Assembly: GCA_043228905.1 (NCBI GenBank)
Contig: JBHGNT010000005.1
Coordinates: forward strand, 7,750,001 to 7,814,000
Source: Azolla caroliniana
Taxonomy: Eukaryota; Plantae; Polypodiophyta
Reading direction: 5' to 3'
DNA length: 64,000 nucleotides
The stretch's first letter is position 1. The number at the start of each line of letters is the position of its first letter. Position numbers and translations under genes: made by a program. The notes under the pieces were generated by a model. The model did not search any database. It was not told the DNA's origin and worked only from the letters and a program-made list of their open reading frames with translations. Of this stretch, positions 12,501 to 47,698 are shown piece after piece.

Positions 12501-15500
12501 GGGGGTAGTGCATCTATACTCATGCCACGTGACTTGAACCATTGCTGCATTTCAGCATACCAACAATAAATGTCTCCATTTTTAGCCAGTTGTCTTGACG
12601 ATGAACTACCTTGGGTACCTTTGTTTAGGGAGCTCCCAAAGACGTCGTATAAATGTCACTGATAAAAACTATGCCTCGGTAATGATAGGTGCTGCTCCCA
12701 TCTCTGCCTGGACTATACTGATGCTTTGCTCCTTATCATGTGGGCAATCATTGACACTAAAGGTCTCTCTAAATCTTTCCAATGATTTGCCTTGTTAAGA
12801 CTCAGTTCCCACATTTCTACTTCATAGAGAAGAGTTGCTGTGACAAGTGTATCAAATAACCATAGCTTAGTTCGTGGCCCTTGGAACTGCAAATGTGCAC
12901 ATTGTCTCTTGAAAGCACCAAGGGCTGCATATCCACGAGAAAGTCGGGCACAAGCAGCCTCCCATAAGGAGAACCTAGGCCCTGCAAATATTACTCCTAG
13001 GCATGTGTAGGTGTGTGTGTATTCCACCTTTTCGTCTCCCAAGACGAATTCCGGTTCTGATCTAGTTAACCATGCTTGAGTGGTGTTAAACACCATCACT
13101 TTAGTTTTATCCATGTTGATTGATAAACATCTGTCCGTACAAAATAGTTTTAAGGCATTTAGATGTCTTTGTAGTCCCTCCAGAGAGTCAGAAATCAGCA
13201 CAATATCATCAGCATATAGTAATATTTGTATAGCTACACCTGCTAGGCGTACTCCCAAACCCCCAAATCTCTCTATGTAATGTGATACCTCATCTATATA
13301 GAGACCGAAGAGAGTGGGTGATAGTGGGCATCCTTTTGGATTGTGCTAGCCACCGCCTCTGGCAAACCCTTGGAAGATCACACTTTTCCTGACACAGATT
13401 CATAGAGTGCATAGATTACCCATTGCATATCTGTAGGAACACGAAGGGCTTCTAGGCGCTGCATATGCCGAGCACGTGGCACAGTGTCAATAAGGGCCCA
13501 CAGGGTGAGTATGTGATCCAAAGTTGTGAACCCCTTCCGAAAGCCTGCCTATCCAACTGAATGGCAGCCATTCCGCTCTGCCCATATACTCAATTCTGAT
13601 TCTAGAATCGAGCCATATAGTTTAGTCAAGTAATGGCCAATCATGATTGTCCTATAATTGCTTGGCATCATGGGGCCTCCACTCTTCAGGAATGGAACAA
13701 TGGTATGCTGAGTCCATCTAGTAGGGAAACCTTCACACATGGCTCTATTGAAGATGTCTGCTAGCAATGGGAGCAAGGTGTCACGGGCATAGATAAAGTG
13801 CTCATCCACCAATCCATCATGATCTTGGGACTTCCCAAATTGTAGCTGATCAATGACATTTCTTACGTTTTGTGGAGTAAAAAAGGTTGATTCATGTGGG
13901 CATGAGCCATATGGGTGGGGAAAAGGAGGTTGCCCCGGGATGTCATATAGAACCTTTGCATATTCATGCCACACCTGAGGTGAGGTCAGTTGTGTGGTAG
14001 GTTGCCTCTCATTAAACATTTTCCATACTCTTTTACTTTCTTGTCCTAGAAATAAGCGATACAAATGATCTTCAAATTTAGCCAAATACAATCTCTTCTT
14101 CTTCCTTACAAGGCGTTGGAAGGTTGCTCTCGCTTGTTTGTGTGTATAAATGCCCCGAGTTACATCACGTTGCAAGCATCTCCTTATGTCACGACATTCC
14201 TCATCATACCAACTATTTTGTATTACTCTACCAAGTTTGGGGGGATTGGCTGTTGTGTGAGGAAAGGCATTTTTGGCTGCTTTATGCAATGATTTTGACA
14301 ATCCTTGGGTAAGTTCTTCAAGGGGTGCGAAAGGATCCAAATCGAGGATGCCATTGTATACACCACAACTATACACACAATTGTCTCGCGAGTAAATAGA
14401 TACTTAGCCAGCCCACTCTCCTTAGCATATACATCCTTTGTGCATCTATCATAGTTATTATCTTTTGTAGATTTGATAATATCACTTAAGGTATGCTTAA
14501 GGTACATTCTTTGTGGTGAGGCTCGTTTACTCCAATGACTTTGGTCATGTGTGGCTTGGGCTCATTACAACTCCAGGAGTCTGTAGGATGCTTCTACCCT
14601 AATATCAACCGCATGAGAGGAAAGAAGGCATTATTCCACGTATCTTGGGAGTATTCTCGCATTCCTTTTATAGGTCTCAAATTCTCCCCATGTTTGATTG
14701 GACACTCTGGTCGTTGATTCATTCGTCATGGATCCTCAATGCTCACGTAGATCACACTGAGATATGATTTGTGTGGTACTTGTAAATATTGATTTTGTAT
14801 AACCAGGGTTTGGCCATTTGCCATTTCCGAATTTTTTGTAGCTAATTTTCTTAGTGAAAATTAGGAATTTCTAATTTCCTTTGGATATCCATATTATATT
14901 TAAATCATTAGTAGATTTTGCCTTCTCCTCTTTTAAAGGGTTCTTCTCTTCATTCAAACTAGTGGAAACAAGTTTAGTTTTTTATTTCAGCTTTCATTTT
15001 TTCTTTGTGTTCTCAGGGAGTGTGGTTTTTACGATTGATTGGTCATGTATCATGTTTGTCTTATGTGGACTCATGTTTGCCTCCTGATTTCTTTCTTTTG
15101 TTCTTTCTTATAATGTTGCTTTGTATCTTTTTTATTAATCATACTTTATTTGAATTTGCTCATCCTGAAAAGCAGCAATGCTGATTAATCTTAATGATGG
15201 GGCTTAGAAACATTTTTTTCATATTGTTAATTTGAAGCCTTGTACTAAAACAAGAAAACCTAATACCCACACGTTTGAGAGTATCTCAAGGGTTTATAGT
15301 GTAGAGATTTTGCTTCTAGGTGCACTTCTCTTGGTTTCTAGCTTTATTACATCTATGCTACAACCCATTGTGATCAGGCACTGTCTAGTATGACCATCTG
15401 ATGGTGTTACAGGGTATAACCTTGCTTCTTTGATTTTCTATGCAGATATATTTAGTTGACATTCAAATCTGGTATACATTAGTTGCATCTATTCTAGGAA

Positions 15501-18500: not shown

Positions 18501-21500
18501 TGTTGTTTAGGAAAATTCTCAACTATATTTAGCTCCATCACTCCTAATGCTACAAGTTAATTCAAAGGCTACTAAAGTAAAGTCTTGATGACAACACTTG
18601 TTGTGTTACGGGCATGACCATATAATATCCTGTGGTAAGATTATACCGTAGTATTCTATACACGTGGATAAAGTGTGAGGGTTAAACGAGAAAGTAAAGA
18701 GGGAAGGATTACTTTTAATCCTTGGGATTGAGACAACCCATTAAGGTCAAGTGTGAATTTGCCTGGGGGCCTTAGGTCTAGCTATAAACATGAGACCTAG
18801 CTACCCTCATTGGAGATATTCGATTACATCGAGACTTTGCTTAAGTGGTGATCAAACTCTTGTAAGTGAGCGCGCCAGTACCAGGTATGACTTGATGCCA
18901 TGACGGTGGTATGGGACGCCGATCAAGGGTCGAGTCCCTCTCGATCCCTTCGCTCACGGGTGGTCGGGTGGATCGGCACCCTTCTTTTTGTCTCGCCTTT
19001 CTTTTCTATCTATCTATTATATCCTTATCATATGCTTACATTAGGATCTAGCTCTAACATGTTGGACTACAATAGGGGGTGTGGAATCGAAAGAACACTA
19101 TACCTGCCATTGTGTTTTTTATAAAATAAGAGGGAGATTCCACTGCGTCTTCAAATAAGTCTTGGCCTCTACGTAAGGTCATGGAAAATGAAGACAAATG
19201 GTGATTGGAACTCTTCTTACTAGAACTCAAGAGACATGAGAGAAGTTGTTGAAGTATAATAATACAACCTCAGGAGCTCTTTGTTCCTTGGAATATGAAG
19301 ACTAATGGTGATTGGAACCTATGTTTCATTGTTATTACTCTGGTTTGTCATTTTGAAAGATGAAAAAAGACTTTAAGATGTAATTCTTGTTTGGTCTTAT
19401 AGGCCATGTAGACCTCTTAAAAGATGCTAATATAGTTTTCTTTCTTTCTGTCCTTGTTTAAAACTCACTTGCCTTTGTTCTTGTTAAAGTTGTGACTTAT
19501 TGCTCATTCTGAACAGTTGCATTGTACTTAGATCTTGTTAATATATTGGGTGTATAGTGAAAAAGAGTTCCTTTCCATGCCGGAAGCTGCAAGAGATTTG
19601 AATCTTCATAATCATCAGAAATACTTTGTCAAATGGCCATTGTTCCTCCTTGTTGGTAAGGTATAAGGGGCTTAATTATCTTTAGCTACAAATTACTGGT
19701 TCTATTTGTTATAATTTTGTTTGGAAAGTTCTTTTGAGCTCATAATGCAAAATAATCAGGTTGATCAAGCAGTGACAGCCACGAAAGATCATGAAGGTAG
19801 TCCAGAAGAAAAGTGGAAGATGATAGAGAAGGATATATATATGCGATCTGCTGTTTTAGAAGCATATGTGACATTTACAGATATTTTACTACAATTTCTG
19901 AATGATCAAAGGTAAGATCATCGTATGAAATTAATGTGTAACTATAGTTCATGTTACTAACATCAATTTTTCTCGATGTTCTGCAATTATTCAGCTTAAA
20001 AGGCAAAGAATTTGAAATTGTGACGAATTTTAAGTTTAAGGAGCTTCCAAATGTTGTAAAGAATGCGTCAGAGCTTCTAGAAGCCCTTCTAAAATTAATC
20101 CTGGTGCACATTTTAACACCTTTTCTTAATATTTATCAATTTCTGAGAAAGTTATTAATATTCCATTTTCACGTCCATGAACTAGGCATCTAAGTTGGCT
20201 TGTTTTAATCTTCTGTGCTTTAATTTAATTTTGAACTATAAACTAAATACAAGTTACCAACGAGTATATTTAGCTAAGCACCTTATATCTAGGTATTCTT
20301 CTTTTGTTTGTTATTCTCAAAAATGAGGCAACATTTAAATATGTAATTCCTCATTTGGTCTCATAGGCCATATTTGCCTCTATATGTATATATATATAGA
20401 AAGAAAGAAAGAAAGAAAGATATATTAACATCTTTTAACAGGCCAAAATGGCAGAAAGAGAAAGAAAGAAAGATATATTAATGTCTTTTAAGAGGCCAAA
20501 ATGGCCTATAAGACCAAATAAGAGATTACATACATACATACCTATATAGATATAGATACATATATATTCCACATACCTATATAGATATATATAGGTATTA
20601 CAAAATGGCAGAAAGAAAGAAAGAAAGATATATTAACGTCTTTTAAGAGGCCAAAATGGCCTATAAGACCGAATAAGAGATTACATCTTAAATTTTTCTC
20701 GTCTTTGAGAACAAATCAAAATAAAGTAAATATTACACAGTAAATATAAAAGTAAATAAGATGAAAAGAAAAGAGACGAGAGAATCTGGTTTTTGGCACA
20801 TGCGAGATTCTCAAGTTAGATATATTGTAGCTTTTGTCTCCGAAAGATCTCTATCATAGGTCGATCCAGAATGGAAATGTCTCCGAAGCGAGGGAAGCAC
20901 CTACGATGGCGGGAGATAATGACTTTTATTTGTTGATGACAAGGGTGTTGAGGTCGTGGTCCATGGGGCCAGGGCCTACGTGCACGGCAAATTGCCATTG
21001 CCCGATCAATCGTAACCCCTTTGTTACATATATATTCCACATGGCTCACGCCCACATGAATCCACCTTTCTACTCAAAATATAAAGAAATGCATTTGATC
21101 CATTACAATTCTGGAAGGCTCAAGATCATGATGGATTGCTAGGTGAGCGCTCTATCTATGTCCATGACGTCTTGCTCCCATTGCTGGCACACATCCTTAA
21201 TAGAGCTATGTGTAAAGGTTTCCTTACAAGCTGGACAAAACATACCATTGTGCCAATCTTCAAGAGTGGTAATTCCATGATGCCGAGAAATTATAGGACA
21301 ATCATAATGCAGAGAGAGAGATATATACATACATACCTATATAGATATAGATACATATATATTCCACATGGCTCATGCCACATGAATCCACCTTTCTACT
21401 CAAAATATAAAGAAATGCATTTGATCCATTACAATTCTGGAAGGCTCAAGATCATGATGGATTGCTAGGTGAGCGCTCTATCTATGTCCATGACATCTTG

Positions 21501-24500
21501 CTCCCATTGCTGGCACACATCCTTAATAGAGCTATGTGTAAAGGTTTCCTTACAAGCTGGACAAAACATACCATTGTGCCAATCTTCAAGAGTGGTAATT
21601 CCATGATGCTGAGAAATTATAGGAAAATCATAATTAGCCATTCCTTGACTCAAGTATATGGCTAAATCCTAGGATCAGAATGAAGTATGGCCTCCGTTCA
21701 GTTTGACAGGCAGGCTTTTCAAAAGGGGTTCATAATTTTGCATCAAATATTGACCCTCGGAGCCCTTACAGAGGAGGGCACCCTAAACATTGTACTTCAC
21801 TCTAAGCTCATGTTAGAAGCTTGAAGCCCTTGGCGTCATCTTATATATACAATCGGGAGTCTATGAAATGTTTGAATACGTGTCAAGAAGAATGTGATCT
21901 CCCATTAAGTTATTAGAGGCTGTGGCTACCACAATCAGAGTAAAACAAGGATGCCCACTATCACCACTGTTTGGTTTCTATGTCGAGGATCTATAATAAC
22001 AAACAACTCTCAGCAATGGATATCTTTGCTCTTGCAATGATGAAAGCAAAATGCGATACGTGTTAGATATAATCAATGATCAGCCCCAAGTTGTAAATCT
22101 ATCCCCATATGTGCTCTTAGAGTGCACATTTTGTGATAGCGCCCCAAATGAGGAGCGGCTAGTGTGCAACTCGACCATATGGGTCGATAAGGTGTTAATC
22201 TAGGAAACCGTAGATGCGTAGGACACAATATATTTAGGAAAGAGAGAAATAGATAAAAGGATTGGCTAATCAAGTCAGCTAGAATATTTTGTGGGCAAGT
22301 TACGATGTACTTAGTCTTGAAGTATGCGTCATTGACTTCAAGATAAGTATTATCTAGCACTAGCCTGTACCTAGGGAGTTGGGTCATATTAAATGACAAG
22401 TCAGTTGACAGAAAAGGAATATCTCCACTACTGTCAACTGACTTGCACATTTATACTAAGACCAAACATAGATTATAAGTCACTTTTCTCACACAGTGGT
22501 CAGATTGATCATTTGTCCCCACTAATTTTGTAGTGAGCCGGTCCATATCCTATCTAAGCTCTAAGGTGTGAGCGCATGGGAAAACTACCATTTTGAACTA
22601 CTCTCATATGTAATAGAAATTCTGTTTTCATATATCCATCTCTGCAGTTGTAACTCTATATACCTATCTACTCGATTCTCAATATTTCTAATAATACGCA
22701 ATGTGAATTGCCGAATTCGGATAATTATCAAGTCTTTGAACGTGACTTGCGCCGGGGGCTTGTCCAAGGGTACGTCTGCCTAAGCGTCCTCATGAACCCC
22801 ATGCCTCTCCCACCATTTGTTGGGATGGAGTGGAGGGGATGATGACGTATTGCATTACATAGACAGATTTGGTGGTTCGTGATTGGCCATTACTTGGCTA
22901 AACTATATGGCTCGATTCTAGAATCAGAATTAAGTATATGGGCAGAGCGGAATGGCTGCCGTTCAATTGGACAGCCAGGCTTTCGGAAGGGGTTCACAAC
23001 TTTGGATCACATATTCACCCTCCAGGCCCTTATTGAGGACGGAAGAGTCCAATAAGAGAATTTATTGCTGCTTTGTGGATTTCTGAAAAACCTTTGACAT
23101 TGTGCCACGTGCTCGGTTTATGCAGGGGTTAGAAGCCCTTGGTTTTCCTACAGATATGCAATGGGTAATCTATGCACTCTATGAATCCGTGTCAGGAAAG
23201 TGCGATCTTCCAAGGGTTTGCCAGAGGCGGTGGCTAGCACAATCCGAAAGGATGCCCACTATCACCCACTCTCTTCGGTCTCTATATAGATGAGGTATCA
23301 CATTACATAGAGAGATTTGGGGGTTTGGGAGTACGCCTAGCAGGTGTAGCTATACAAATATTACTATATGCTGATGATATTGTGCTGATTTCTGACTCTC
23401 CGGAGGGACTACAAAGACATCTAAATGCCTTAAAACTATTTTGTACGGACAAATGTTTATCAATCAACATGGATAAAACTAAAGTGATGGTGTTTAACAC
23501 CACTCAAGCATGGTTAACAAGATCAGAACCGGAATTCGTCTTGGGAGACGAAAAGGTGGAATACACACACACCTACACATGCCTAGGAGTAATATTTGCA
23601 GGGCCTAGGTTCTCCTTACGGGAGGCTGCTTGTGCCCGACTTTCTCGTGGATATGCAGCCCTTGGTGCTTTCAAGAGACAATGTGCACATTTGCAGTTCC
23701 AAGGGCCACGAACTAAGCTATGGTTATTTGATACACTTGTCACAGCAACTCTTCTCTATGAAGTAGAAATGTGGGAACTGAGTCTTAACAAGGCAAATCA
23801 TTGGAAAGATTTAGAGAGACCTTTAGTGTCAATGATTGCCCACATGATAAGGAGCAAAGCATCGGTATATTCTGGGCAGAGATGGGAGCAGCACCTATCA
23901 TTACCGAGGCATAGTTTTTATCAGTGACATTTATATGACGTCTTTGGGAGCTCCCTAAACAAAGGTACCCAAGGTAGTTCATCGTCAAGACAACTGGCTA
24001 AAAATGGAGACATTTATTGTTGGTATGCTGAAATGCAGCAATGGTTCAAGTCACGTGGCATGAATATAGATGCACTACCCCCGTTCCAATATAGCTTGGA
24101 CTGTCCCCATCTAAATGTGACCAAAGTGGAAAAGAATAGAGTGATCCGAACTGATATTATTAACTTGGAAAACAAGATAACATGGATCAGCCCCAAAATA
24201 TCACTTGGTACGAAGATGGCCCACAATAAAACACTTCTTACACACATTGGAGGATGGATTCATCATTAGGCCACCTTATATGGACATGCATCTATCCTAT
24301 GTACTGCGTAGTGTGATAGGGTAGCGACGAACTTCATCACATCAGTTACAGATCGAGGTAGGCAGATATACCCGACTACCTCTAGAAGAGAGAATTTGCC
24401 AATTGTGCCATCAAGGATCAGAATCCGAAGAACACTATGTTTGTTATTGTAGTGTCTTTTATGAAATCAGGGGGAGATACCATTGCCTCTTTAAACAAGG

Positions 24501-27500
24501 CTTTCGCCCACTACGCAAGGTAATAGAATATGAGGACCAATGGTGCCTAGGACTTTTCTTGCTAGAGCTCAAGAGACATCGAGAAAAGTTGTTGTCAATC
24601 ACGGGATACACAAATGGGCTCCCGACCAGGACATAACAAAGGGGTTATAATTGATTGGGCAATAGCAATTTGCCGTGCACGTAGGCCTCGGCCCCATGGA
24701 TTACGACCTCGACACCCTTGTCATCGACAGATAAAAGCCATTATCTGCCACCATCGCAGGTGCTTCCCTTGCTTCGGAGACCTTTCCATTTTGGATTGAC
24801 CTATGCTAGAAATCTTTCGAAGACAAAAGCTACAATACACCTAACATGAGAATCTCACATGTACCGAAAACCAAATTCCCTCGTCTCTTTTTATCTTATA
24901 TACTTATATATTTACGAAGTATTATTTACTTATTTTTTTTATTTGTTCTCAAAGACGAGACAACACTTAAGATGTAATCTCTTGTTTGGTCTAATAGGCC
25001 ATTTTGGCCTCTTAAAAGAAATATATCTTTCTTTCTTTCTATCTATCTGATTGGAAAGAGATCTAATTACTTCATGGGCCAACACATAAACTCCTATGTT
25101 TTTGTGCATGGGCAGAAAAATAAAGAACTTGATGCAACAAAGGTCCACCAGTAAATTCCTTATACATGGTTTTGTTGATATTTCTTGCGATTCGCTCATG
25201 GTTTTGTTGATGTTTCTGGAGACCATCTTTTTGGACCTACAATTATACCTTTTGTCAATTCATTGATGTTTTGTTCATGGCCAGGAAAATAAACAACTTG
25301 AGGCAGCAGAGAGGTCCATCAGTAAATTCTTTGATATGCTTGAGAGGTTTGAAGATAATTTCTTTCTTATGTTTGCATAAATGTGTTAATAGTAGATGTA
25401 TGTGCTTTTGTGTGTTGGAAGATTTTCCTCATTAATAATAGTCAATAAGGTAATCTTATAGTCAATCCTTGTTTTTAGATCGTTTAAGATATATCCTGAG
25501 GTCCTTCGGAGTACTTCGCATGAGCTTCAGTGGCCTACTGAAGCTCACAAGGTGGTAGGTATCTCCTGAGGTGCATCAGCTGAATTATACAGATAATGTG
25601 TTGAAAGCTATTTTCTTTCTGCAATTATATATTAACAAACTTGTGAACTGAATTTTCTCATCATGTGAAATTGTGCTCATGTAGTGTCGCTCAAAAATAG
25701 AAAGGTTACAACACCTTCTAAAAGGAGATGGATCAGAAAGTATCCCAAAGAATCCGGAAGCGCGTCGTCGATTACAATTTTTTGCAAATTCGCTATTTAT
25801 GAATATGCCCAAGGCTAAATCTATTGAAACAATGAGATCCTTCAGGTATGTATTTGAACCTGAAGTTTTTCTTATTTTCTCCTGCAACCTCATTCTTGTC
25901 AGATTCTTCCTCTGATGTTTTCCCTGTTTCCAATCCGAGTTTTCCTTTCTTTCGGTAGTGTGATTACACCATTCTCTTCAGGGGATGTCATATACACAAT
26001 TGAGCAGTTGAATAAACAAGAGGATGGCATTTCATTGCTATTTTATTTGCAAAAAGTTTTTCCAGGTGAATTACAACTTTATGATTCTAGGTTTTTTTTT
26101 AAAAAACGAATTCCTCCTGTTTCAGCGATTCATATTGTCATCCTCTTCTACACTAGTTGGAGGGACATACTGTTTACTATGTTTTTGAGACAAGTCTGCA
26201 TTTCTTTGAACTTTTAATGTTTTTGACAAGTTAACGTAAAAACTATTTCTAAGAATTGAAATATGGCGTTTCGAAGATGCAAATAGAACTATCTTGATTT
26301 CTTTGTAGCAGAAAATGAGGCCATTTTTACCTGGCAACAAAGAAGTTTTAATCTATTTAAGATCTGTTGTTTCTGGAGTAGTTAACAAGAGTTTTTGGTA
26401 ACTTAGAGCTAGTTATATTTATGTTAGTTTCTTTGTAAAGATGAGGCAATATTTTAAGGTGTAATCCTTCATTTGTTCTTGTTGGATATTTTGGCCTCTT
26501 AAAAGATGATAATATCTTTATTTCTTTGTATTAATCTGATGGACTGAAAGATATCTGCATTAATACTGCTGCTTTGGTTTTGATTCTTCAAAATTGTACT
26601 GAAATCAAATGATCTAGAATGTATGGCTGTCCTAGAGCTGAAGTGTTCTATATAAAACTATTGAGCCAAAACCACTGTAAACTGTTTTTTTTGCTTTTAG
26701 ATGATTGGAAAAACTTTTTGGAAAAACTGAAAATGAAAGAGGATATATTGATGATGAGAGTGAATGAAGATAAGACTTTGCAAGTAGCTTTGAAATTACG
26801 TTTGTGGGCCTCCTACCGTGGGCAGACATTAGCAAGGACAGGTTTACAAATGATTTATTGTTTTTTGCTGTAGCATTAAATGCTCTTAGAATTCTAGCCA
26901 ATTTAAATGAATGCCACCTTTATACAGTTCGGGGAATGATGTACTATCACAAGGCCCTTCAAGTACAAAGACTTGTAGAGATTTCAGCTTCTGAAGGTTG
27001 GTACAAAGAAATGTATTGGCCTATATATATAATACTGTAAGAGGTAATGACAGTACAAAATTTCATTCATGTTAATTCTTTTGCATAAAAAAATATTGCA
27101 TCAATCAAGATGTAGGTAGATATTACATCTACAACAGTTTTTTCATATGCATCCATCTGGTCATCTTGACAGGCTGCATGTTTATAAAATGCAGATAAGG
27201 CTGCTAAAAGTGATCAAAATGCAGATAAGATTACTAAAAGCGATGGAGATCCCAGATCACAGAGGGATCAGGTGCATGCAAACTTGAAGTTTACCTATAT
27301 TGTGACATGTGAGATAAGCATGCAACAAGAACAACAAAAACAACAGAAACGGGATATTCTCTATCTGTTAAAGACGTATGAAATACGCTGTATTTTTACA
27401 TGTATTTTTTAAGGATATAACTTCTTGTCGAACCATCTATCAATTATCCTTGCTGCAGGAATAAAGCATTACGAGTGGCATATATACACATGTCTGACCG

Positions 27501-30500
27501 GAAAGAATATTTCTCAAAGCTTATTAAAGCCAATGTTAATGGCATAGAAGAAGTAAGCTTACAGTCCGCAATCGTATTAATCACTTCAATCAATTTTTGA
27601 AACTAATCAATGGATAAAATTTAGAACTCTTTATTCAATGAAAGCAATGCTCCATTTGAAATCTTCTGCCCACACCAAACTGAGTTATATGAAATCATAT
27701 ACGTCCATCATGTGTTTCCTCTTCTGTAATCTTTTAGCATTTTTCAGTATTACACTCCTCAACAGATGCTAGAACTATTCCAAGAGGCATCTTTTGTAAA
27801 ATCTTAACTAATGGAAACAATACTATGATTGTTCAGTTAAGTTACCCTGTCTAGATATTATGTCAAAGTTAACATGTTAAACATACAATCTTCTAGAGGT
27901 TTGAGCATATTTGGTGTACTATGTATTATCAATTAAAGAATTGTTTACCTGTGTTTGACATTCTAAAGTAATTTCCAGGAAATCTACAAAATAAAACTCC
28001 CTGGGGATCCATGGTTGGGTGAACGAAAATCCGAGAACCAAAACCATGCTATCATATTCACACGTGGTGATGCACTCCAAAGCACTGCTGCTGACCAGGT
28101 GCAACTTTAGAGCACATTTATAATTAAGAGTTTGAATTAGCATTTTGTAAAGAAAGCTGCCACTTTGGTGCACAACACATGTTTACAATGTGTAATAGCT
28201 GTTGCATGATAGTTGAGAAATGGGTTCATTGTCATAAAATAAACAAAAAGGCATAGCTTGAAATTATGTGAACTTTAGAGCACATTTATAATTAAGAGTT
28301 GGAATTAGCATTTTGTAAAGAAAGCTGGTACTTTTGTGCACAACATGTTTGCAATGTGTGCTAGCTGTAGCCAGGTACTTAAGGAATGGGTCCACTGTCA
28401 TAAAATAAAAAGAAGGCATTGCTTGAAATAATGTGATCTTTGAATCTCTTATCCCTTTTCCAAGGTATTAGTTTTGAAAAGTTGACATGGTTCCTGTCAT
28501 GTTTTATATGGTTCCGTACATTACTGTCTCTTACTATAGGACAACTATTTTGAAGAAGCGTTAAAGATGCGGAATCTGCTCGAGGAGTTCAGTTGCAAAC
28601 AGGGGTTATGTCCTCCATCAATCCTTGGAGTTCGAGCGCATGTGTTTACGGGAAGGTGGGTCCATTGTACTTAATATATTCACTCTAGTTTACAGTTTCG
28701 TAAGGCACATGTATTGTTATGTATTAAGACCAGATCCCCCAATGACTGCTCTTCCACTGGTTCCTACTTCCAGTGTCTCGTCCATTGCATGGTTCATGTC
28801 AAATCAGGAGGAATGTTGGGCTACTCTTGGCCAGAGAGTTCTTGCTAATCCTCTAAGGTATATTCACAATAGGCTGCAGAATTTACTCAAATATCTATAT
28901 TGACAGGCAATTTATGAACCTAATAGGGTACGAATGCACTATGGAGATGGTGATATCTTCGATAGGATTTTCCATATAACTAGAGGAGGAATAAGTAAAG
29001 CATCTAGAGGCATCAATACCAGTGAAGATATTTTTGCAGGTTTCCTTTTACCCTCTTGAGTAGTAACTGAATGAATATATAGAGCCAAACTTTATATCTG
29101 AATGAATATTTTTCTTTATTGATGTAGGATACAACTCAATTCTCAGAAATGGAAGCATCACTCATCACGAATATATCCAGGTCAATTCAGTGTCTTCTCA
29201 ATTAGTAAATTCATTAAGTATCAATGCAAAGGCCAAGAAAATGTTCTCCATTATCCTCCTTAATTACTTATATGTATGTGGAATGCTCAAATATATGTAC
29301 TTGCATTTGGACAAATATAAGTGATAACAGCGGGTGCCTATTTCCGTTTTCATTGACAATGAGTAACATCATCCCCTCTATGTACCCACCCTCAAGCACA
29401 CCTGTTATTCCATACAGAGGATAATTGATGGTGGCGAAGAAAGAAATGTTTACTTTCTTAAGAGGCCAAACTGGCCTGTAAGACAACTTAAAATGTTCTC
29501 TTGTCTCTCAGAATCAACAAAAACCAAAATAAATATAATTAAGTTACTCATAAACAATAGAATACCTCCTAAACATTCGCAAGGTTGGCAACCCATGTAG
29601 CCTTGAACATGATCCCAGTATGAACACAAAAGTGGGTCCCTAAGAATGCAAATTTTGCTATTGGTATGTTCAATAGCGGTTGTAGCTAAACAACACTTTA
29701 AGACCACTGGTGCTGCCGAAAAACAAAGTCGGTTGACCTTAGAAAGCATGATCAGCGAACCAACATGACACAACCTCCCCTGAGAAGAACTACACTCAAT
29801 CTTCCAAGAGTCCCACCAGAGGGTCACTTTCGGATGTTACTTTTACTCCTGTCCGGATATATTTGCTTTCTACCCCTATTTCCTCCAACATAAATTGGAT
29901 ATTTCAGGAAGTGCGCCTCACAACCCTTTCCAGCTGTTTTCCCCCTCCCAACGGCAGGTTCTCACACATTACTCACCCATCCGCCACTGGAAACACCATG
30001 AAGATGCTTCCCGTCTGACTTGCATGTGGTTCAGACTATGATTATGGAGATTCGGTAATTGGGTTTAATCAATAAACCCACGGTCACTTCGATCCGACAA
30101 AACTATCGATTACAGAAATCCAAGTTTACTTCGTCGATTTGTTAGCGTGCTCAGTAGGTCTAATTCCTACTGTATTTTTCGGAATGCACAAGAGTTGTTG
30201 AAGCTAGTGTATTGGAAGATCAAAGGGCAGAAGAATTGTAAATGCTTTACTGGTCGCTAAGATTCTCACTACGCGTTCCATTTATTTACAGATATCGATA
30301 GGGTTTCTTTGTGCACGCAGTACAAAGATGAATCGAGTATTTCAGAATAGCCCCTGGTTGAACTAGGATGCCTGACGTCCCTTTTAAGAAGGAAATATGT
30401 GCAGATGTGGCTGGCTACCCACGCTCTCACATGAGATGCCGATGGTCACCCAACCCAATCCACTAGCCATTGATTCCCACACCTGCCAACTACGAGCTTG

Positions 30501-33500
30501 CATGTCAAAGAAACGCTGGAACGACCTTTGAAGATGCAAGTTCTAGGAATTGGCAATGGCTTGGCTCAAGCCTAAACCGAACCATCAAATCGCGGTTTGG
30601 CGGTTCTGTTCGGTTCGGTTTAGACTTGAGCTTCCTTAACCGGTTTGAACTTGGTTTGGGATTGCTCTAACCAGTTACCAAGCCGGTTAAGGCTTAATCG
30701 GCTTGTCCAAACCGGTTTAGAAACCGGTCCGGTCCAGGTTTGGAAACCCCCAAACTGCAAACCGTTGCCGATTCCTAGATGCAACGCTGACAGAGCGCCA
30801 AAGCCCTTCATGCCACCACGCTGACGACTGCAATCACAGTGCTACTAAACCTCGAAGTTCATTCTGGAGCATTTCAAGACACGATGGACGCTATCACCAC
30901 TGTCTATGCCAGACTTGATGCACTTTCTTGGGCCAGTGCTGAATATTAACATCAGGTACAGCGCCTCATGCGACAAAATGCTGAACTCTCTGCCCAACTC
31001 AAGGCTGCCAAGAGCGAGTCCACTGCCCACACATGTGCCTACAAAACTGCAATGAGTTTGTGAAATTCCCTTGCTAACCAATTGGCCGAATCAGAGTTAG
31101 ACTGCCACAGACGTTTAGAAGAAGCCCTGCATACCACCACCATGCAATGGCATACACAAAGCAGGCTACCTACTCATGCCGAACTCAGTGCCACTTTTGT
31201 GCAGTTTACTGAAACCTTTCAACAAGAGGAGACCCTGCACACTGAGCACCCTGCCCAGCTTGAGGCGAAACTAACAACTATGGAAGTGAGCCACAGACCA
31301 CAACTCACAAACTCAACCAGGGATTTGATCATCTTAGTGGAATCCTCCCTACAGGGATTTAAGACCCTGAGGACGTCTAATGATAATGTTCTATGTACGA
31401 AGCCAGGGGGACACCAATCGAGCAGCTGCCTATTATACTCTTCCTACACTAGATACATGTGAGTCAAGTTGCACAAGGAAACCAGTCACAAAGATAGAAA
31501 CATATAAGCAAGAGGCAAGAAGAATGAGAGGAGCTGCACAAAAATCTGGTTTTATAGTGATGTGAAACGAGCAGATGGGTTTATCCTTGTCATAGTGTTG
31601 ATCATCATCTCTCCCCAAAGTGTTGTGGATGACGAAGTCAATCAGACCATCAGTAATAGTGTCAATTGCCTTTCAAGCTATGAAAAGTCTATGTACAAGC
31701 ATAAAACCAAACCTGAAATATGTAACATGTGCATGCATGCAATTGTTTTTAACTGAATAAAATGGTTGTTATTTCAGGTTGGGAAAGGTTGTTCTGTGGG
31801 CTTGAACCAAATAGCTATGTTTCAAGGAAAAGTAGCTTGTGGAAATGGTGAACAAAGTTTGAGCAGAGACATGTATAGACTGGGGCAGCTTTTTGACTTT
31901 TTCCGGATGATGTCCTTTTATATCTCATCTATAGGCTTCTATGTATGCTGCATGGTAATGCGATATCTTTGTCTATTATGTCGTAAACTATGAAATTCCT
32001 TAAGCATGACTTCGAGACTGATTTACAGATGATGGTGCTTACTGTTTACGTCTTTCTTTATGGGAGAGCTTACTTGGTCAGTTCTTCAATTTACATTTCA
32101 CTTATTCAGTGCATGATTCTTATGGTGTTTTCACTTGACATTTGAGTTATTGTCTTACTCTTAGGCTTTTTCTGGAATTGGAAGATACCTCAAAAGTGAC
32201 ACTGCAAGCCCTGCTACTGATACTGCTCTGGAAACGGAGTTTCTATTTCAGATAGGTGCCATTGCCATAATACCAATTGTCACAGTGCACATACTTGAAG
32301 AGGGTGTTTTTAAGGTCGTATAAGCATAAGATTATGTCATTTATACAGGATCCAATATTATGTTTCTGATTGTCTTCGTTCATGTAGGCCTTGGTAAATT
32401 TTATAACAATGCAACTTCAACTGTATTCAGTATTCTACGCTTTCTTGTTGGGCACATGTACACACTATTTTGCGAGAGCTATTTTGCATGGAGCTGCCAA
32501 GGTATCTGCAGATCATTTATGTCTATAGTTCAAAGCTAATCTCTAGTAAAATTTTATAATTCTTCACTGAGAATCAACAAATAAACTGCAGAACCAGGAA
32601 ACAGGAAGGGGTTTTGTGGTTCAACACACCCGATTTGCTGAAAATTATCGCTTATATTCCCGAAGCCATTTTGTAAAAGGGTAAAATGTTGTTTACCTAT
32701 CCATCAGAACCAGCAACAAGAATTTGTAAATAAATGAAAAGAATGTAAACACTTAACTATAGTAACGATCTGAATATTATATCAGATCCCTAGAGATATA
32801 GTGCATGTAATTGTATACATTTGAATACCTTGTATCTGTACATTTTTGCAAATATTGTCATCAATACCACATGTCCTTTGCCATTTCAGACTAGAAATTT
32901 TGATGCTCTTGCTGGTTAACATCATATATGGATTTGAGAAAACAAGAAGCAGCTATATTATTCTGAGTTTAGCGAGTTGGTTTCTGGCAGTATCTTGGCT
33001 TTTTGCCCCATTTCTTTTCAACCCTGCTGGTTTCGAATGGCAAAAGTATATTTTTCTCAGATTAGATTATCTAAAGGTTTGAAAGAAGAATGAGATTTGT
33101 TGACTTTATTGTAGTTCTCATAGTCTCTTTACGCCAACTGACCAGGACGGTTGAAGATTTTGCTGATTGGACAAACTGGATTTTATACAAGAGTGGCATA
33201 GGAGTGGATGTTAGAGAGAGCTGGGAAACATGGTGGAATAATGAGCAGGTGAAGAAGATAAATGGAAAACTACACTACTGATTTCCAGCCTTTGAGATTG
33301 TGGCATACTCTGTTTGTACGAAGCTTTGACTCCTGGACAAGATGATTATTGCATTACAAACAACCAAACTTAATAATAATCGATTCACATTTTGTACCAT
33401 ATATCCCAAAATTTACTATGTGACAGGCAAGTTTCAGGCTCTGAAACCAATAGCACAGTGAATCATAACACATTTCAATTCCTAAGAACCAACCATAGAG

Positions 33501-35095
33501 CGACACCAGCCACACTAGTGCTGTTACTGATGTTTTTGTTATTTTTCTTATGAAGAAGTTTCCTTTGAATGGTTCTTGAGACGATATTTCTGAACTCACT
33601 CCAAGCTTCTTTGTCCATCTTATTTGCGTGCAGCTCCTTGCACTGACAACATCTAAATTATACAATGTCTTTGTGATGCATAAAATTAATATTTTACAGT
33701 TTATGTAAATATTTAAACTCTCACCATGCTGAAGAAGTTGATCAAACTGTTAATAATCTTTCTTCTTTTCCTAGTTCAAATATATTAATGGCTCTAAGAT
33801 CAATCAACATATAGTCAAACTTAGTTCATGGTTTTTATTTGAAAGATGACCTTGCCAAAACTACAACTTTTCTTTAGTTTCTTTTAGTTTTTTGCATTGT
33901 AAAGTTGCACTGCATCACATATTATTGTGCCATTTATACTTTGTACTTATCCAACTTTATGCTATTTGTGTTCAAAACCAATACTGCAGGAGCATGTTCA
34001 CAGTTGCGGTGGAAGAATTGTGGAGTCCATATTATGCTTGCGGTTCTTCTTCTTCCAATATGGTGTGGTCTATCAACTACATGTTGTAAATGGAAATACT
34101 AACCTACTTGTAAGTGTGATTCAACATTTTGCAATCCATTTGAGATTTATGGCAGATTGTGAATGTCACTATGGAACTTTGTAGGTGTATGCTTATTCGT
34201 GGCTGATATTTTTCATAATTCTTATTATTTCAAAGGTTTGGAAACCTCTCTTTCCTAATGTGTAAAATATTATATGGTTACCTCTTCCTAATTTTATTTT
34301 AACAATTCCCAGGTTTTTACAGTCAGTCAAAAGATGTCTGTTAATGTTCAACTGTTCCTACGTCTAGTACAGGGAATATTATCTATGCTTTTGGTTCTCA
34401 CAATAATTCTTTTGGTCATATTTACGAGCATTTCGATCAGTGATATATTTGCCCTTTTGTTGGCGTTCATTCCAACAGGCTGGGCTATTATTTCTGTAAG
34501 ATTCTCTCCTCTTTTTCTTTTGTTTTTTCATGCTTATAGAAGAAACAAATGGAACAATGAGATTGCATATCATAGATACCCAAACAGAGCTGCTTTTAAT
34601 ATCAGATGATGCAACCACTTCTCTTTGTGTGGATATCAGAAGTTTTTTATAATTTAAAGAATGGTTCATGTATTTAATTAACATTATCTACTCACACCTG
34701 AGACTCTCAGTGTAGTTTTCTGTCTTACTCTTTTATTCTTGTTGAGGTAATGAAAGGGGTGTCGAGATCTTGTGTGTGTACTTTGTTGTGACATACAGAT
34801 TGCTATTTTATGGAAACCACTGATGAAGAGATTAGGTGTATGGAGGCACGTGCGAAAAATGGCTAATTTCTATGATGCAGTGATGGGGATGTTATTATTC
34901 ATTCCTCTGGTGCTCTTGTCATGGTTTCCCTTCATTTCCACTTTTCAGACACGCATTGTGTTCAATCAAGCCTTCAGCCGGGGGATGGAGATATCCCTCA
35001 TCCTTGGTGGTGAGCAAGTTGCACCCCCATCTCCTCGGATTCCCAGGACACCTAAATCCTCAGCGTCATCCAGAAACCATGCCAAACTCCAGTGA
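527..35095 (+). CDS. CALS: Callose synthase / 1,3-beta-glucan synthase-like (GT48), GSL8/GSL10-type intron-rich gene, 5'-partial, divergent active-site motifs
   Basis: 42 phase-compatible GT-AG exons, 4530 nt, no internal stop: 527-631, 2531-2604, 2721-2778, 3691-3819, 3954-4053, 4141-4264, 4579-4768, 4849-4901, 4997-5057, 6203-6284, 9246-9295, 15446-15532, 15843-15931, 16006-16036, 16153-16223, 19558-19660, 19760-19911, 19995-20103, 25285-25346, 25479-25551, 25685-25845, 25959-26065, 26701-26841, 26928-26996, 27195-27375, 27459-27552, 27979-28098, 28540-28655, 28774-28857, 28927-29039, 29128-29180, 31778-31954, 32029-32076, 32165-32314, 32388-32501, 32592-32680, 32890-33045, 33146-33248, 33990-34109, 34185-34235, 34313-34495, 34799-35095. 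Family motifs: [126 protein letters not shown]. Confidence 0.95.
1799..2214. mobile_element. hAT-like MITE in callose synthase intron
   Basis: Imperfect terminal inverted repeats (TAACAATCGGCAATGATTTGGT ... AACCGAACTGTTATCGACTGTTA), 8-bp TSD ATTGTTGT/ATTGTTGC, many subterminal AACCG(A) motifs and an AT-rich core. Confidence 0.75.
5318..5435. mobile_element. One-ended fragment of the same hAT-like MITE family
   Basis: Starts TAACAATCGGCAACGGTTCGGTTTG and has AACCGAACCG repeats matching 1799-1930; no second terminus found. Confidence 0.6.
7136..8400 (+). mobile_element. RTEX-clade LINE fragment (RT region plus 3' end), frameshifted, with internal duplication
   Basis: [17 protein letters not shown] and LLYADD RT motifs; ~87-bp internal duplication ([23 protein letters not shown] twice); family 3' end with (CTTT)n tail near 8290-8400. 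Confidence 0.85.
10626..10890. repeat. Two-copy tandem duplication, ~135-bp period
   Basis: ACCAAAATGCAAACTGAGATGT...GATGATATATCTAATTA at 10626 and 10761, nearly identical. Confidence 0.9.
10895..11555 (-). mobile_element. Stacked 5'-truncated RTEX LINE 3' ends
   Basis: Two head-to-tail copies of the family 3' UTR, each beginning with (GAAA)n on the + strand (about 10895 and 11090), followed by the TTTTAAGAGGCCAAAATGGCC-type core or a shortened version of it. Confidence 0.8.
11556..14720 (-). mobile_element. RTEX-clade LINE, longest copy, frameshifted
   Basis: ORFs 13549-14376 ([14 protein letters not shown]) and 12713-13258 (LLYADD), C-terminal [18 protein letters not shown] motif typical of RTEX, and (GAAA)n tail at ~11556-11575; 5' limit approximate. 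Confidence 0.9.
16395..17500 (-). mobile_element. Older, internally deleted RTEX LINE remnants
   Basis: Diverged 3' UTR (16395-16850) and RT piece [27 protein letters not shown] (17030-17230). Confidence 0.75.
18604..19059 (+). mobile_element. Solo LTR inserted in LINE-derived intron sequence
   Basis: Termini TGTTAC...CTAACA, perfect 5-bp TSD TGTTG on both sides, internal TATAAA; homologous inverted copy at 46288-46583. Confidence 0.85.
20395..21025 (-). mobile_element. Three stacked RTEX LINE 3' ends
   Basis: (GAAA)n + GATATATTAA..TTTTAA(G/C)AGGCCAAAATGGC units at about 20400, 20455 and 20610; the last extends ~400 bp into the 3' UTR. Confidence 0.85.
21035..21985 (+). mobile_element. RTEX LINE RT fragment with ~326-bp tandem duplication
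   Basis: [17 protein letters not shown]...NYR appears twice (21136, 21462), followed by degenerate RT sequence up to KQGCPLSP; the LINE resumes at ~22842. Confidence 0.8.
22001..22788 (+). pseudogene. 5.8S rRNA pseudogene (with probable short ITS1/ITS2 flanks, ~21986-22841) split by a solo LTR
   Basis: 22001-22060 AAACAACTCTCAGCAATGGATATCTTTGCTCTTGCAATGATGAA-AGCAAAATGCGATACG and 22699-22788 CAATGTGAATTGCCGAATTC..ATCAAGTCTTTGAACGTGACTTGCGCC..AGGGTACGTCTGCCTAAGCGTC match the two halves of plant 5.8S rRNA, with CG>TG/CA changes and a small deletion. Confidence 0.88.
22061..22693 (+). mobile_element. Solo LTR inserted in the 5.8S pseudogene
   Basis: Termini TGTTAG...CTAATA (one mismatch from CTAACA) and perfect 5-bp TSD ATACG (22056-22060, 22694-22698); strand tentative. 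Confidence 0.85.
22880..25040 (+). mobile_element. RTEX-clade LINE, 5'-truncated, frameshifted
   Basis: RT ORF 23325-23927 (LLYADD), [33 protein letters not shown] zinc-knuckle-like C-terminus, 3' UTR and (CTTT)n tail; near-identical reverse complement of 11560-13643. Confidence 0.92.
25096..25170 (+). other. Degenerate duplicate of callose synthase exon 25285-25346 with its acceptor
   Basis: ATGTTTTTGTGCATGGGCAG|AAAAATAAAGAACTTGATGCAACAAAGGTCCACCAGTAAATTCCTT aligns with ATGTTTTGTTCATGGCCAG|GAAAATAAACAACTTGAGGCAGCAGAGAGGTCCATCAGTAAATTCTTT; a 2-nt deletion gives an early stop. Confidence 0.75.
28099..28435. repeat. Intronic tandem duplication, ~169-bp period
   Basis: AACTTTAGAGCACATTTATAATTAAGAGTT...GCTTGAAAT occurs twice. 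Confidence 0.85.
30543..30778. mobile_element. MITE related to the 1799-2214 family (hAT-like)
   Basis: 21-bp TIR CTAGGAATTGGCAATGGCTTG versus CTAGGAATCGGCAACGGTTTG (18/21); interior rich in AACCGG/CCGGTT; no clean TSD. Confidence 0.7.
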
Positions 35096-38000
35096 TCAAA
35101 TTCTCCTCATTTTACTGAAGTTCAAATCATCACAAACTTTGCTAATGTGAAACCCCATTACCTCTATTAATCAAGTCCCACACACCTTAAACTTATACAC
35201 ACCCGTATGGAACTCGCATCATCAAGCTGTTCTATTATACCAGGGTTCAAATCTAGTCAAACTGTCCTGTACACAACTCAAAATTATCAATTTGGATCTC
35301 ATATGAAAGAATCATGCTGAGGACATATTCCTTGGTTTTGTATTTCTGGAAGTTTGTATTAAATATTCAAGAATTATAGTGACAAATTACAATATATAAA
35401 AGAGAATGACAATGCTCGATGGAGTAAAATTTTCCATCTTTAAAAGAATATTCTGGGGATTGCCAGTTCTTTTATCTCCAGAACATGTGGTGGCATGTTT
35501 TACCACTCTTGCTCTGATTAAAAGATGTTGCATATTTTCTGATCATAATGTGTGACACAACAAATGTGGCGATTCATCAGTTACGGGTACTTGGAAATTG
35601 GACCATATATATTTTTTTAGCTAATGGTTTTTTAGCTTGCATATATTTATCTTTACTTCAACTTAAATATAAATTTTCTGGTCTAAAGCCTACACGCAAT
35701 CATTCCTTGGATTTCAGATTTCAGTAGGAGCAATATATGACCACTCATATTGGAAATTTGTGCAAAAAGGAATATGGCCGAAGATGGAAACCTAATCTAA
35801 ACAAGTAAAGAGTGTAGAGAAAAATTAGAAAAGATATGTCGGTTGAAACTCGGTTCCATGATCCTCTTTCGGCCCACCCTATGGAAATTTTGATTTTGGT
35901 AAAAATTCTAGGCTTTGTATTCGCACAGGGGAAATGTATAATTTTGGCATTCGTATAATGCTTAACTTGGCCCTACATTTAAGACCACACTTGTGAATAA
36001 ATGTGAATGCAACCTTAGTGTTCTACACATAGGTTCATACATAATTTGGGCTATTACATTGATATGAAACATAATACAATTTTATGGATGCAACTTATAA
36101 ACTCGTGCATTTCTTTATCCAAGGTAGAGCATTGTATCAAAGTGTGATACTCAAACTCCCAAACTTGTGGTAAAGAATGCACAGTTGGTTACTCTCATCA
36201 CTTCTACCCCAACCCCTCATCTTACATTGTAGTGAATGTGAGCTAAGAAGTCACATGAAAGCAATGGTTTGGATGGCAAACAATGGATGGGTTCTAATTT
36301 TCCTATGTCATGATATATTAGCATTGCAAAATGACTTATTCATAAAGTAATCTAATGATGCATTATGAAGTAATTGCATTGCATTCCATTTTCTAAACCA
36401 TTTTCCATATCTTTCACCCAACAAGAACACAAAAGTTTGTTTTATTTTATTTTATTTTTGATTGCTTCCTATGTGATTCTAGGAAGTTGATGCGAGGGAC
36501 TTTTTCAAACTTTAAGCATGTATTCACCAACCTTTTCCATGGCCATGAATGATCTCAATGGGAAGTGATCCCATCTCAAGAAGTTGAAGAGTGTGTAGCA
36601 TTTGTTTCTTGACTCAAAGAAACTTTGTGAGAAAATGCATTTGGATATTTTTTTACGATTTCCAAGTAGACTTAGGGATGTTATTGGCCCATACTTCCAC
36701 CCCCCATAAAGAAGCATTGGTCTCAACCAAGTGTCTAAAATGTATTTCTTAAAGACCCAACACTTATATTCTCCATGATTGTATGTGTTTGTATCTTTGA
36801 TTGTATGATGGTTTGCTAGTTGCGTGCACATTATTTTCTTTTCTGCCTTTATACAAACATTTGATCCAATTTGTAGTCCAATCATAGGGCATCCCATGTT
36901 GCAATGCATGATTAAACATTCACTTATCCATGCATGCACTTCCTTTCCCATCCATTTGAGTGTTTTGACCTTTAGATATTGAAGATCTCTTGCCTTTCAA
37001 GATGCCAATTTCTTAATCCCTATGCATACATTTTCAATTGTAAACAAAGGAAGCATATATGAAAGACAACTATAAAAGATCATCTTTTTGGCAATTGGCA
37101 ACTCATATAAATTCTATGCCACATTCCACATTGCATGGGATTCCATTGTAATCCCAATAGCATAGTTGTAGAAAAAGTGAATTAGTCGCAAAGATGTCCC
37201 TATTTGTTTTTCATCTTAACCACATTTTTCAAATTTTCTTCGCGTGATTTACAATGGGCCTGTTGTTGTGAGATATAAGTATGATCTTCACTCACAAATC
37301 ATTGTGTACCTTTGAGGTTCTCCCAACTATTTTCAATTGTGATTCTTCGCTTTGTATCGTTGACCATTGTGCATACAATAGGCCTTTCTTTGAATTAGCA
37401 ATGCCTTATTTAATTCCCAACTTAGTATGACCCGTACATATTCACATACCCTAGTGCATACTAAAGAATTTAACAATGACCTTGCCAAGGGATGCAAGTA
37501 TTTCCATGCTCTCACTCCCATAGATTACAATGTTTTTCAATCTTCATTCGCATTCTTTCAATTTTTGGACATTGTTTTCTTGATTCATCAAATGCATTAA
37601 TAGTTCAAGAGTTACAAGATGAATCCCCAACACATGCATTAACCTATGACTTTGCTTTGCATATATTTTTCATCTCTCACATACCGCCTCATCATATCCA
37701 TTATTTTCATCATTTGTTGCTTCCTTTTACCTCAATATTGATTAAGCTCTCATTTGTTTTCAATTAGAAGCTTTCTTACATTCTTGAATCTTATCCTTAA
37801 GTTTGGCAATTGTTTGCTTAAGATTATCGTTCTTAATAACAATGGTTTGTAGTTTTGCATTCTCCTTCATGAATGACCTAATCTTTAGAAGTCCCCCCAC
37901 ATTGCAATTGAGAAGGGCCCAACAATTGGGATGGCCTTCTTTGGATCAAATAATGTTTGGGATAGAGTGTTTGTAGTTTATATCAATGGATACTTGAGGC

Positions 38001-41110: not shown

Positions 41111-44833
<3,723 letters not shown>

Positions 44834-46645: not shown

Positions 46646-47698
46646 CGTTCCCACCAACATCTCCTACCATGTCTCACCAACACATTGTAGTAATGCTCTT
46701 CATAGTTTTGGATAATCTAAGGAATAATTACCGAATTGTTTGGTCTAGATGTGGCTTTGATTAAACCGCGCATTCCCCTAATATGTCTCATCACAAGCCA
46801 TTGAACTACGTACAACCTTATCTAATCACCCAATATTTTGCTCACGCTTGCAGCACACACAAGTCTTTTTTGACAAAACTTCTTGTTATTTTTTCTTTTC
46901 TTTGGGCAGCATCAAATTCAAACCAAGACTTTCGAGTTGTTGTAAATTGACCTTGTGTATGAATGGGGAAGCCGAGAATTTCTCTTCTCTTGGAATTGAA
47001 GCCACAAATTACAATATCATCAGAGTGTATAACTTCCTTCAAATTGTCAGGTATGAGTCCCTATCAGAAGAAGGGTATATATATATATAGGGACCTCTCT
47101 TCTTTCAAGCACATCATCTTCAACCCCTCAACTGTCTCCCTGTTTCTTCAGGTATTTACTCTTGTTTCTTTGCTTTCCTCTCTGTTGTGAATCTCTCTGT
47201 TCTTGTTTTCTTGTTTCATTTACCCATTATGATGTGATGATGTTGGTATCATGTCATGGCCTTCTTTAGAAAGCATGAAGGGACTCTTAATGCTCTTCTA
47301 CAGCTGCTATAGTCGTAGAAAGTATACACAATACCAATGTCAGCAACTGTAATCAATGACATCTTATGCAAAAGTATGCGCTACTCAATACCATTGCTTA
47401 CAAATGCATTCAAGCAGAACTCATTATCTTATGCACAATGGCATCTCCTAAAGAAAACGAAGAGGGAGTATACTGGTTTAAAGAAACTTCTAAACTTAGC
47501 CAATTAAGGTATGTTTTGAGAGGAAGTATAGCTAATACAGATAAACTTCAAACCTCCTTGACAAGGTACAATGCTAAGAGATACCCACATGAAACATATA
47601 ATACTCCATACCTTTGTCTTAAATAAACTTTCAATATTACCCAACAAGATATAAGTGGAGATACCCAGAGGAAATATCCTCCATCCCGTGGACTTAAT

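Follow-up and report, generated by a model that had tools for sequence, protein, structure and literature searches.

An intact callose synthase gene of the fern Azolla caroliniana with an altered active-site pocket

Results

A clade-B callose synthase-like gene

We analyzed a 64-kb stretch of the 523-Mb genome of the fern Azolla caroliniana (G000:C5:7750001-7814000; hereafter the window, with positions counted from its first base). Spliced alignments and translation identified 42 coding exons of a callose synthase (CalS)-like gene of the GSL8/10 clade (CalS clade B) on the plus strand, at 527-35095. An earlier note on this DNA had described 42 exons joined in frame without a stop. That count is exact for the window, and the full gene has 51 exons (5706 nt, 1901 amino acids), with 50/50 introns GT-AG and no internal stop. 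The nine further exons sit 43-4618 bases before the window start, which puts the start of the gene ~4.6 kb upstream; the stop codon is at 35093-35095.

The exon model was made by splice-aware alignment to fern homologues, with exons 19995-20103, 25285-25346 and 25479-25551 set by hand. Placement of the nine upstream exons, and of every exon that precedes 24900, relied on homology and splice signals, and the model is uncertain at the Vta1-like N-terminus. Two ~1.96-kb insertions resembling long interspersed nuclear elements (LINEs), 95% identical and in opposite orientation, lie in two introns of the gene (11558-13490 and 23094-25044). False exons that spliced alignment put within LINE insertions were rejected. 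This LINE recurs in other introns, as does a 400-450 bp repeat, and a degenerate copy of exon 25285-25346 lies directly upstream of that exon (25100-25345).

The domain organization of the family is recognizable in the product. Exons in the window matched PF02364 (Glucan_synthase) in a search of the genome (best E 1e-18), and FKS1 domain 1 is present, as judged from an upstream exon (LYLLIWGEAANLRFLPECLCYIF) and the full-length alignment. A crude hydropathy scan gave 13 segments, equal to the number in the database relative P0024, with two membrane blocks flanking a cytosolic glycosyltransferase (GT) domain; the membrane segments are kept, as had been proposed. Identity to fern CalS is 68-69% in the GT core. 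Between transmembrane segment (TM) 6 and that core lies a plant-specific helical region (19558-25845, plus strand), taken as Bag-like with inferred boundaries, which is shortened by deletions and 32-36% identical to fern relatives.

Judged by its phylogeny, the window gene is a clade-B (GSL8/10) callose synthase by descent. Its product is 55% identical to P0024 and P0002, 51-55% identical to P0024, P0002 and Ceratopteris P0107, and 49% identical to the clade-B paralogues C16 and C18a of its own genome. In a 20-sequence tree it grouped with P0002, P0024, P0126, Ceratopteris P0107 and Adiantum P0127 (Shimodaira-Hasegawa-like approximate likelihood ratio test, SH-aLRT, 100), with weak support (41-58) for its position inside that fern clade-B group. 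Its branch length was 1.14, compared to 0.08-0.26 for these relatives. Grouping of the window gene with C16 and C18a was rejected by the approximately unbiased (AU) test (p=0.002, with 5000 replicates, flagged by the program as too few, and with the caution that applies to long branches). Synonymous divergence (dS) between the window gene and its own paralogues was saturated.

The genome contains 16 full CalS loci: three of clade B, seven of clade A and six with an intronless C-terminal half (clade C); one extra contig duplicates C18a. The window gene is the sole member of its fern lineage that we found in the genome, and we found no duplicate partner. It shares its length (~1900 amino acids) and domain order with GSL8/CalS10, GSL10/CalS9, Ceratopteris KP509_20G078000 (P0107) and Adiantum L7F22_064331 (P0127), and exon number (~50) and positions are the same in the window gene and its clade-B paralogues. 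It differs from these relatives in its branch, at least four times longer, and in its pocket: we counted no pocket changes in five clade-B relatives versus 9/19 in the window gene.

Nine of 19 pocket sites are changed

The earlier note had listed motifs, near-invariant in plant CalS, that were altered in this gene. We confirmed all 15 altered strings in the spliced gene: 14 were located directly on the plus strand (25966-32615), and the 15th, QSTAADQ|DNY, straddles the 28098/28540 exon joint. We then scored sites lining the pocket of yeast Fks1, with residue numbers verified on the Protein Data Bank (PDB) sequence. Twenty sites were picked from PMC13249079, PMC10499315 and PMC12715860 if they could be aligned to plants, a list compiled after the window sequence had been seen. 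F1297, variable in plants, was removed, leaving 19 sites; its equivalent is kept in the window gene.

The changes are spread over seven exons, all on the plus strand. The TPFSSG exon (25959-26065) encodes the uridine-binding site and carries Y849S (25975-25977) and E851G (25981-25983). The exon for GERKSENQN and STAADQ (27979-28098) keeps K1082 and N1085, has R in place of G, and carries D1102A (28087-28089) and N1104D (28093-28095), so that the DxN motif, whose plant form DMN occurs in 200/204 database proteins, reads AAD. E1155A (28636-28638) lies in the GVRAH exon (28540-28655). The IF1 exon, with QEECWAT (28774-28857), keeps E1173 and carries F1176W (28817-28819). In the HYGDGD exon (28927-29039) H1195 is replaced by D (28946-28948) and the catalytic ED pair, Fks1 E1221/D1222, is intact (29024-29029, within SEDIFAG at 29021-29041). 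The exon for VGKGCSVG and TM7 (31778-31954) keeps K1246 and, in FQGK, F1258 and K1261, and carries R1248C (31790-31792). The latch-loop exon, with NQETGRGF (32592-32680), carries Y1424N (32592-32594) and keeps R1429. In the CEISM exon (27195-27375), which has a short tandem duplication of its acceptor, the family-invariant Q and G are replaced. Ten of the 19 sites are kept: D1080 (E in plants), K1082, N1085, E1173, E1221, D1222, K1246, F1258, K1261 and R1429. Compared with Saccharomyces cerevisiae Fks1 (GT48; PDB 7XE4 and 9PE1 series), the window gene therefore has in common ED, K1082, N1085, E1173, K1246, F1258, K1261, F1297 and R1429, and has replaced Y849, E851, D1102, N1104, E1155, F1176, H1195, R1248 and Y1424.

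We found that this number of changes exceeds what is seen in other plants and elsewhere in the same protein. Among 195 database proteins, mostly angiosperm clade B (195/204 that covered at least 17 sites; nine were left out for coverage), 189 had no pocket change and six had one. Among 384 family-invariant columns, defined from 70 reference sequences, 335 are unchanged in the window gene and 49 are changed. The changed columns include 8/18 pocket sites versus 41/363 other sites (Fisher p=0.0007), or versus 23/215 invariant sites within the GT and channel region (p=0.0007); 18 pocket sites entered this test because Y849 fell below the invariance filter. Further changes at invariant sites line IF1, TM8 and IF3. 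Four acids are lost: E851, D1102, E1155 and D1249. A single nucleotide step suffices for 8/9 pocket changes and for 42/49 invariant-site changes.

The earlier description of a systematically rewritten active site thus holds in that the changes go beyond chance and map to the GT48 pocket, at 9/19 Fks1 residues that include D1102, H1195, R1248 and Y1424. The word "systematically" goes too far, since 10/19 sites are kept and 8/9 changes are one-step. Some listed changes are also not lesions, or say little. The H of LRVAYIH (for LRVAYID) occurs in 82/204 database CalS proteins and in the canonical paralogues C16 and C18a. The S of GERKSENQN and the second A of STAADQ match yeast Fks1 S1083 and A1103, and the glutamate lost in FEGK to FQGK is T in yeast; these carry little weight.

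Published work assigns functions to many of the replaced residues. In substrate-bound yeast Fks1 the incoming glucose is held by D1102, H1195, K1082 and R1248, and the phosphates are contacted by K1246, R1248, K1261, Y1424 and R1429; K1246 and R1248 are said to stand in for Mg (PMC13249079). In the same study R1248A and Y1424A each abolished growth, and D1102A, N1104A and H1195A lowered it. D1102A is the identical substitution in the yeast mutant and the window gene. Fks1 E851L, E1155L, H1195L and D1102L/N1104L did not complement (PMC10499315). Uridine-site roles are given for the equivalents of Y849 and E851 (PMC12715860; preprint 10.64898/2026.05.05.722910). In a model of Arabidopsis CALS1 the E851 equivalent is on uridine and the D1102 equivalent is on Mg, and CALS1 NQD and ED mutants were inactive in yeast (10.64898/2026.05.05.722910). 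Because the uridine site, three of four glucose contacts (D1102, H1195 and R1248) and two of five phosphate contacts (R1248 and Y1424) are lost, normal callose synthesis by the window gene product is unlikely. Of four active-site features of a 1,3-beta-glucan synthase, the ED pair is present and three have failed (DxN, the uridine site, and K1246/R1248 with the latch loop).

The gene is spliced and constrained

We found evidence of splicing and of purifying selection in sequences from relatives. We aligned four of the 13 listed sequencing runs to 24900-35300, and the reads therefore cover the 3' third of the gene. The evidence for expression consists of exon joints in contigs of relatives within 25500-35264, from runs whose RNA label is a guess; none of the runs that carry this sequence is registered as RNA. 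Spliced contigs X1 and X2, from two studies with two organism labels, joined exons at six or more modelled introns (31954-34799), and X2 contained more exon joints near 25554, 26993 and 27375. At the tandem acceptor of the 27195 exon (27186-27240), the first site is the one spliced in X1, and the joint of X2 lies deeper in the exon.

Altered motifs in two of the exons are shared with near relatives. Contigs of X1 and X12 had no differences over 27193-27375, the CEISM exon. The metagenome contig L083 was identical in the 31778-31954 exon and differed elsewhere at 15/1590 aligned bases. An assembly error as the source of the motif changes was rejected, as L083, X1 and X12 agree on the motif exons.

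Exons were approximately 3-4 times less divergent than introns. In X1, exon-only pieces differed at 14/813 positions (1.7%) versus 29/491 (5.9%) for intron-only pieces. In X2, the values were 12/563 (2.1%) and 81/1309 (6.2%), and in X3, a DNA run, a Poisson fit gave 2.4% and 10.3% (all three contrasts p about 1e-4 or less). The contrast used 26 of 32 pieces, among the pieces listed (there are 2101 more); six X12 pieces were dropped (repeats, organelle-like DNA and paralogues), and intron pieces may contain repeat copies from elsewhere that inflate it. Among the exon variants listed (547 rows lie beyond these), from low-depth orthologous contigs with intron and high-depth paralogue rows excluded, nine of 21 were synonymous and 12 nonsynonymous, with 21.5% synonymous expected. 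This gives a ratio of nonsynonymous to synonymous polymorphism (pN/pS) of 0.37 (p=0.023). In a simulation, random mutation of the coding sequence to 10% protein change gave no stop-free copies in 300; the window protein is ~45% diverged from its nearest relative.

The window gene is constrained, less tightly than canonical paralogue pairs. We found no stops, frameshifts or broken splice sites and no neutral evolution, the marks of a pseudogene; of the marks of a pseudoenzyme, an intact open reading frame (ORF), spliced contigs and purifying selection are present. A young pseudogene, which the earlier note had named as a possible refutation, does not fit the intact ORF, the spliced contigs and the pN/pS of 0.37. 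From the spliced contigs and the conservation of exons, we conclude that the window gene is not a pseudogene. The protein has accelerated unevenly: by 1.6-1.8 fold across the FKS1 domain, TM1-6 and Bag-like region, and by 2.3-2.6 fold across the GT core and the channel half.

Other paralogues with damaged pockets

We found that the pocket is damaged in 4/16 CalS copies of this genome, which by the sequence comparison belong to three separate lineages; the other 12 showed no change at the covered pocket sites. Two of the damaged copies are a clade-A duplicate pair, C5b (G000:C5:17166186-17183200, minus strand) and C2 (G000:C2:7489086-7505701, minus strand; the pair comprises loci L071-L076). 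Both have open frames and carry ED to EH, F1258A, K1261R, an insertion in the latch loop, HYGHSD and LAEAR. The ratio of nonsynonymous to synonymous substitution rates (dN/dS) between them was 0.13 at a dS of 0.84, compared to 0.06-0.13 for canonical pairs (Nei-Gojobori method, NG86, C-terminal half). Four paralogue pairs have dS of 0.72-0.90, a spread consistent with a single genome duplication. The dN/dS of 0.13 over this long span argues that both copies of an enzyme without the catalytic aspartate were kept. C5b and C2 would therefore be better candidates for dead enzymes than the product of the window gene.

The remaining damaged copy, C7 (G000:C7:about 2830000-2862825, plus strand; loci L065-L068), is a clade-A CalS with an open frame and a long branch. 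It has TPYYMQ and a latch loop reading YQTTEHSF, the equivalents of E851Q and R1429H. Short intronless CalS fragments with a frameshift or stops were seen at C18 about 12.89-12.90 Mb, on C1196 and at C12:7724385-7724528; these are likely pieces of processed pseudogenes.

Searches for the same changes

We did not find the same changes outside near relatives. Two exon searches of 90% protein clusters returned none. A search with residues 330-1000 of P0002 gave no carrier among the best 120 of 1183 matches, and when 1.84 billion representatives were searched with exon queries, the best 150 of 436 matches held none either, with the canonical GEGKPENQN in 142/150. A scan for the HYGDGD pattern gave no matches, and a metagenome scan of 80 loci found L083 as its only carrier. 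The carrier searches used short or partial queries, and absence is not proven by them. Database proteins P0001, P0004 and P0005 are annotation artefacts from metagenome assemblies, in which DNA of this plant was translated unspliced and TGA was taken as W; P0001 was therefore rejected as the product of a transcript. In the literature searched, which covered few subscription journals, we found no report of a plant CalS with a degenerate active site. Two papers on CalS phylogeny (PMC10879339, PMC5683620) do not mention damaged active sites in their accessible parts.

Other features of the window

An intron at ~29780-30370 contains short fragments that drew very deep contigs in 4/4 runs and look like organelle DNA; we take part of it to be 16S rRNA-like. 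Rfam gave no match in the window at gathering score. Downstream of the CalS gene, open frames at 42088-44830 (plus strand) presumably belong to a poly(A)-binding protein-like gene. We also take 47627-49789 (plus strand) to be an intronless pentatricopeptide repeat (PPR) gene and 50718-51368 (minus strand) to be a basic helix-loop-helix (bHLH) gene. At 57846-63253 (plus strand), frames resembling a transposase precede what is presumably a broken copia-type retroelement.

Discussion

We propose, with moderate confidence, that the window gene encodes a callose synthase pseudoenzyme maintained by selection, likely a non-catalytic membrane partner of active synthases. The proposal draws on the pocket, the reading frame and the exon conservation, and also on the stronger acceleration of the GT core and channel half and on the parallel cases C5b and C2. 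In such a scheme, the sister clade-B lineage (C16 and C18a) would supply catalysis, the pocket of the window copy would then have been freed part-way along its branch, and the fold and membrane segments would have been kept for a structural role. The simplest role would be that of a subunit tuning or placing the CalS complex. The rate of change at pocket sites, 47%, was lower than the 64-76% at variable sites, indicating that the pocket is partly constrained or was freed late on the branch.

Several known systems suggest, by analogy, how a partner role could work. GSL8 binds GSL10, and a non-enzymatic role has been proposed for GSL8 (PMC6249969). CalS has been reported in a preprint on clade A enzymes to form trimers via the plant-specific Bag domain. 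In fungi, the GT48 paralogues FKS2/FKS3 of Candida albicans and FKS3 of S. cerevisiae have been described as regulating FKS1 negatively or as contributing little activity (PMC12715860). They are of another kingdom and are likened here by described role, not by active-site sequence. Arabidopsis beta-amylase 9 is described as a plant pseudoenzyme, without catalytic activity of its own, through which an active paralogue is regulated; it belongs to a soluble hydrolase family, so the analogy is one of principle.

Some of our results weigh against a non-catalytic partner. The ED pair, K1082, K1246, K1261, R1429, N1085, E1173 and F1258 are kept and would be superfluous in a dead enzyme, and the pocket changes less than variable sites do. 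Nor do the proposed interface regions stand out as conserved: acceleration peaks in the Vta1-like N-terminus (2.9 fold, in the part where the model is uncertain), and the Bag-like region has deletions. The pN/pS of 0.37, from 21 variants among the rows listed, is looser than in paralogue pairs. In addition, the effects of mutation were measured in other proteins, yeast Fks1 and Arabidopsis CALS1, and the trimer comes from a clade A preprint.

These kept residues are the main argument for an active glycosyltransferase with an altered donor or product, which we regard as unlikely. E1221, D1222, K1082, K1246, K1261 and R1429 are kept while uridine and glucose contacts are changed, F1176W retains an aromatic stack, and the extra changes line IF1, TM8 and IF3. 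R1248 is a proposed metal surrogate, and its loss, together with the new acids N1104D and H1195D, could rebuild a metal site. However, the retention of six chosen sites at a change rate of 47% is a pattern recognized post hoc, 42/49 invariant-site changes are single-step, as drift gives, and four acids were lost as well. R1248A and Y1424A are each null in yeast, and the other damaged paralogues lost different residues, the catalytic Asp included, which indicates loss and not one new chemistry. The fuller version of this idea seems to us improbable: the window copy would be the first GT48 enzyme of a different chemistry, keeping ED and the phosphate clamps, with new nucleobase, sugar and metal contacts, and would make a non-callose wall polymer, and callose synthases of this fern lineage would have acquired new functions in three or more independent events. 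The earlier note had offered a non-catalytic or regulatory paralogue and an altered specificity side by side. The first fits best; the second has the kept ED pair and basic residues in its favor, and the suggested link to non-callose wall glucans found no support.

It is very unlikely that the window gene is a redundant duplicate under relaxed selection, drifting toward a pseudogene with no current role. The long branch (1.14 versus 0.08-0.26), the acceleration of all regions, the pN/pS of 0.37, the lack of a duplicate partner in the genome and the introns loaded with mobile elements would fit such drift. However, 1901 codons and 50 introns are intact at ~45% protein divergence, three relatives show introns ~3-4 times more diverged than exons, two studies yielded spliced contigs, and 335/384 family-invariant columns are unchanged. 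We likewise give little credence to a weak but real callose synthase with mutually compensating changes: the ED pair and the RxTGR arginine are intact, several yeast single mutants reduce growth only, CALS1 F1395A was reported to be statistically comparable to wild type in yeast, and some changes equal yeast residues, but the nine pocket changes occur together, two of them at individually null positions, and database proteins have at most one (n=195).

Plant CalS active sites are near-invariant, with zero or one change at 19 sites in 195 proteins. What is new here, alongside the window gene, is three more intact paralogues with other active-site damage. Four of 16 copies that have lost pocket residues and remain intact offer a natural test of whether CalS has non-catalytic roles, as proposed for GSL8, and of whether inactive subunits can sit in CalS complexes and modulate callose at cell plates or plasmodesmata. 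Should the protein instead turn out to use a different substrate, the family, known here only for 1,3-beta-glucan, would have a broader chemistry.

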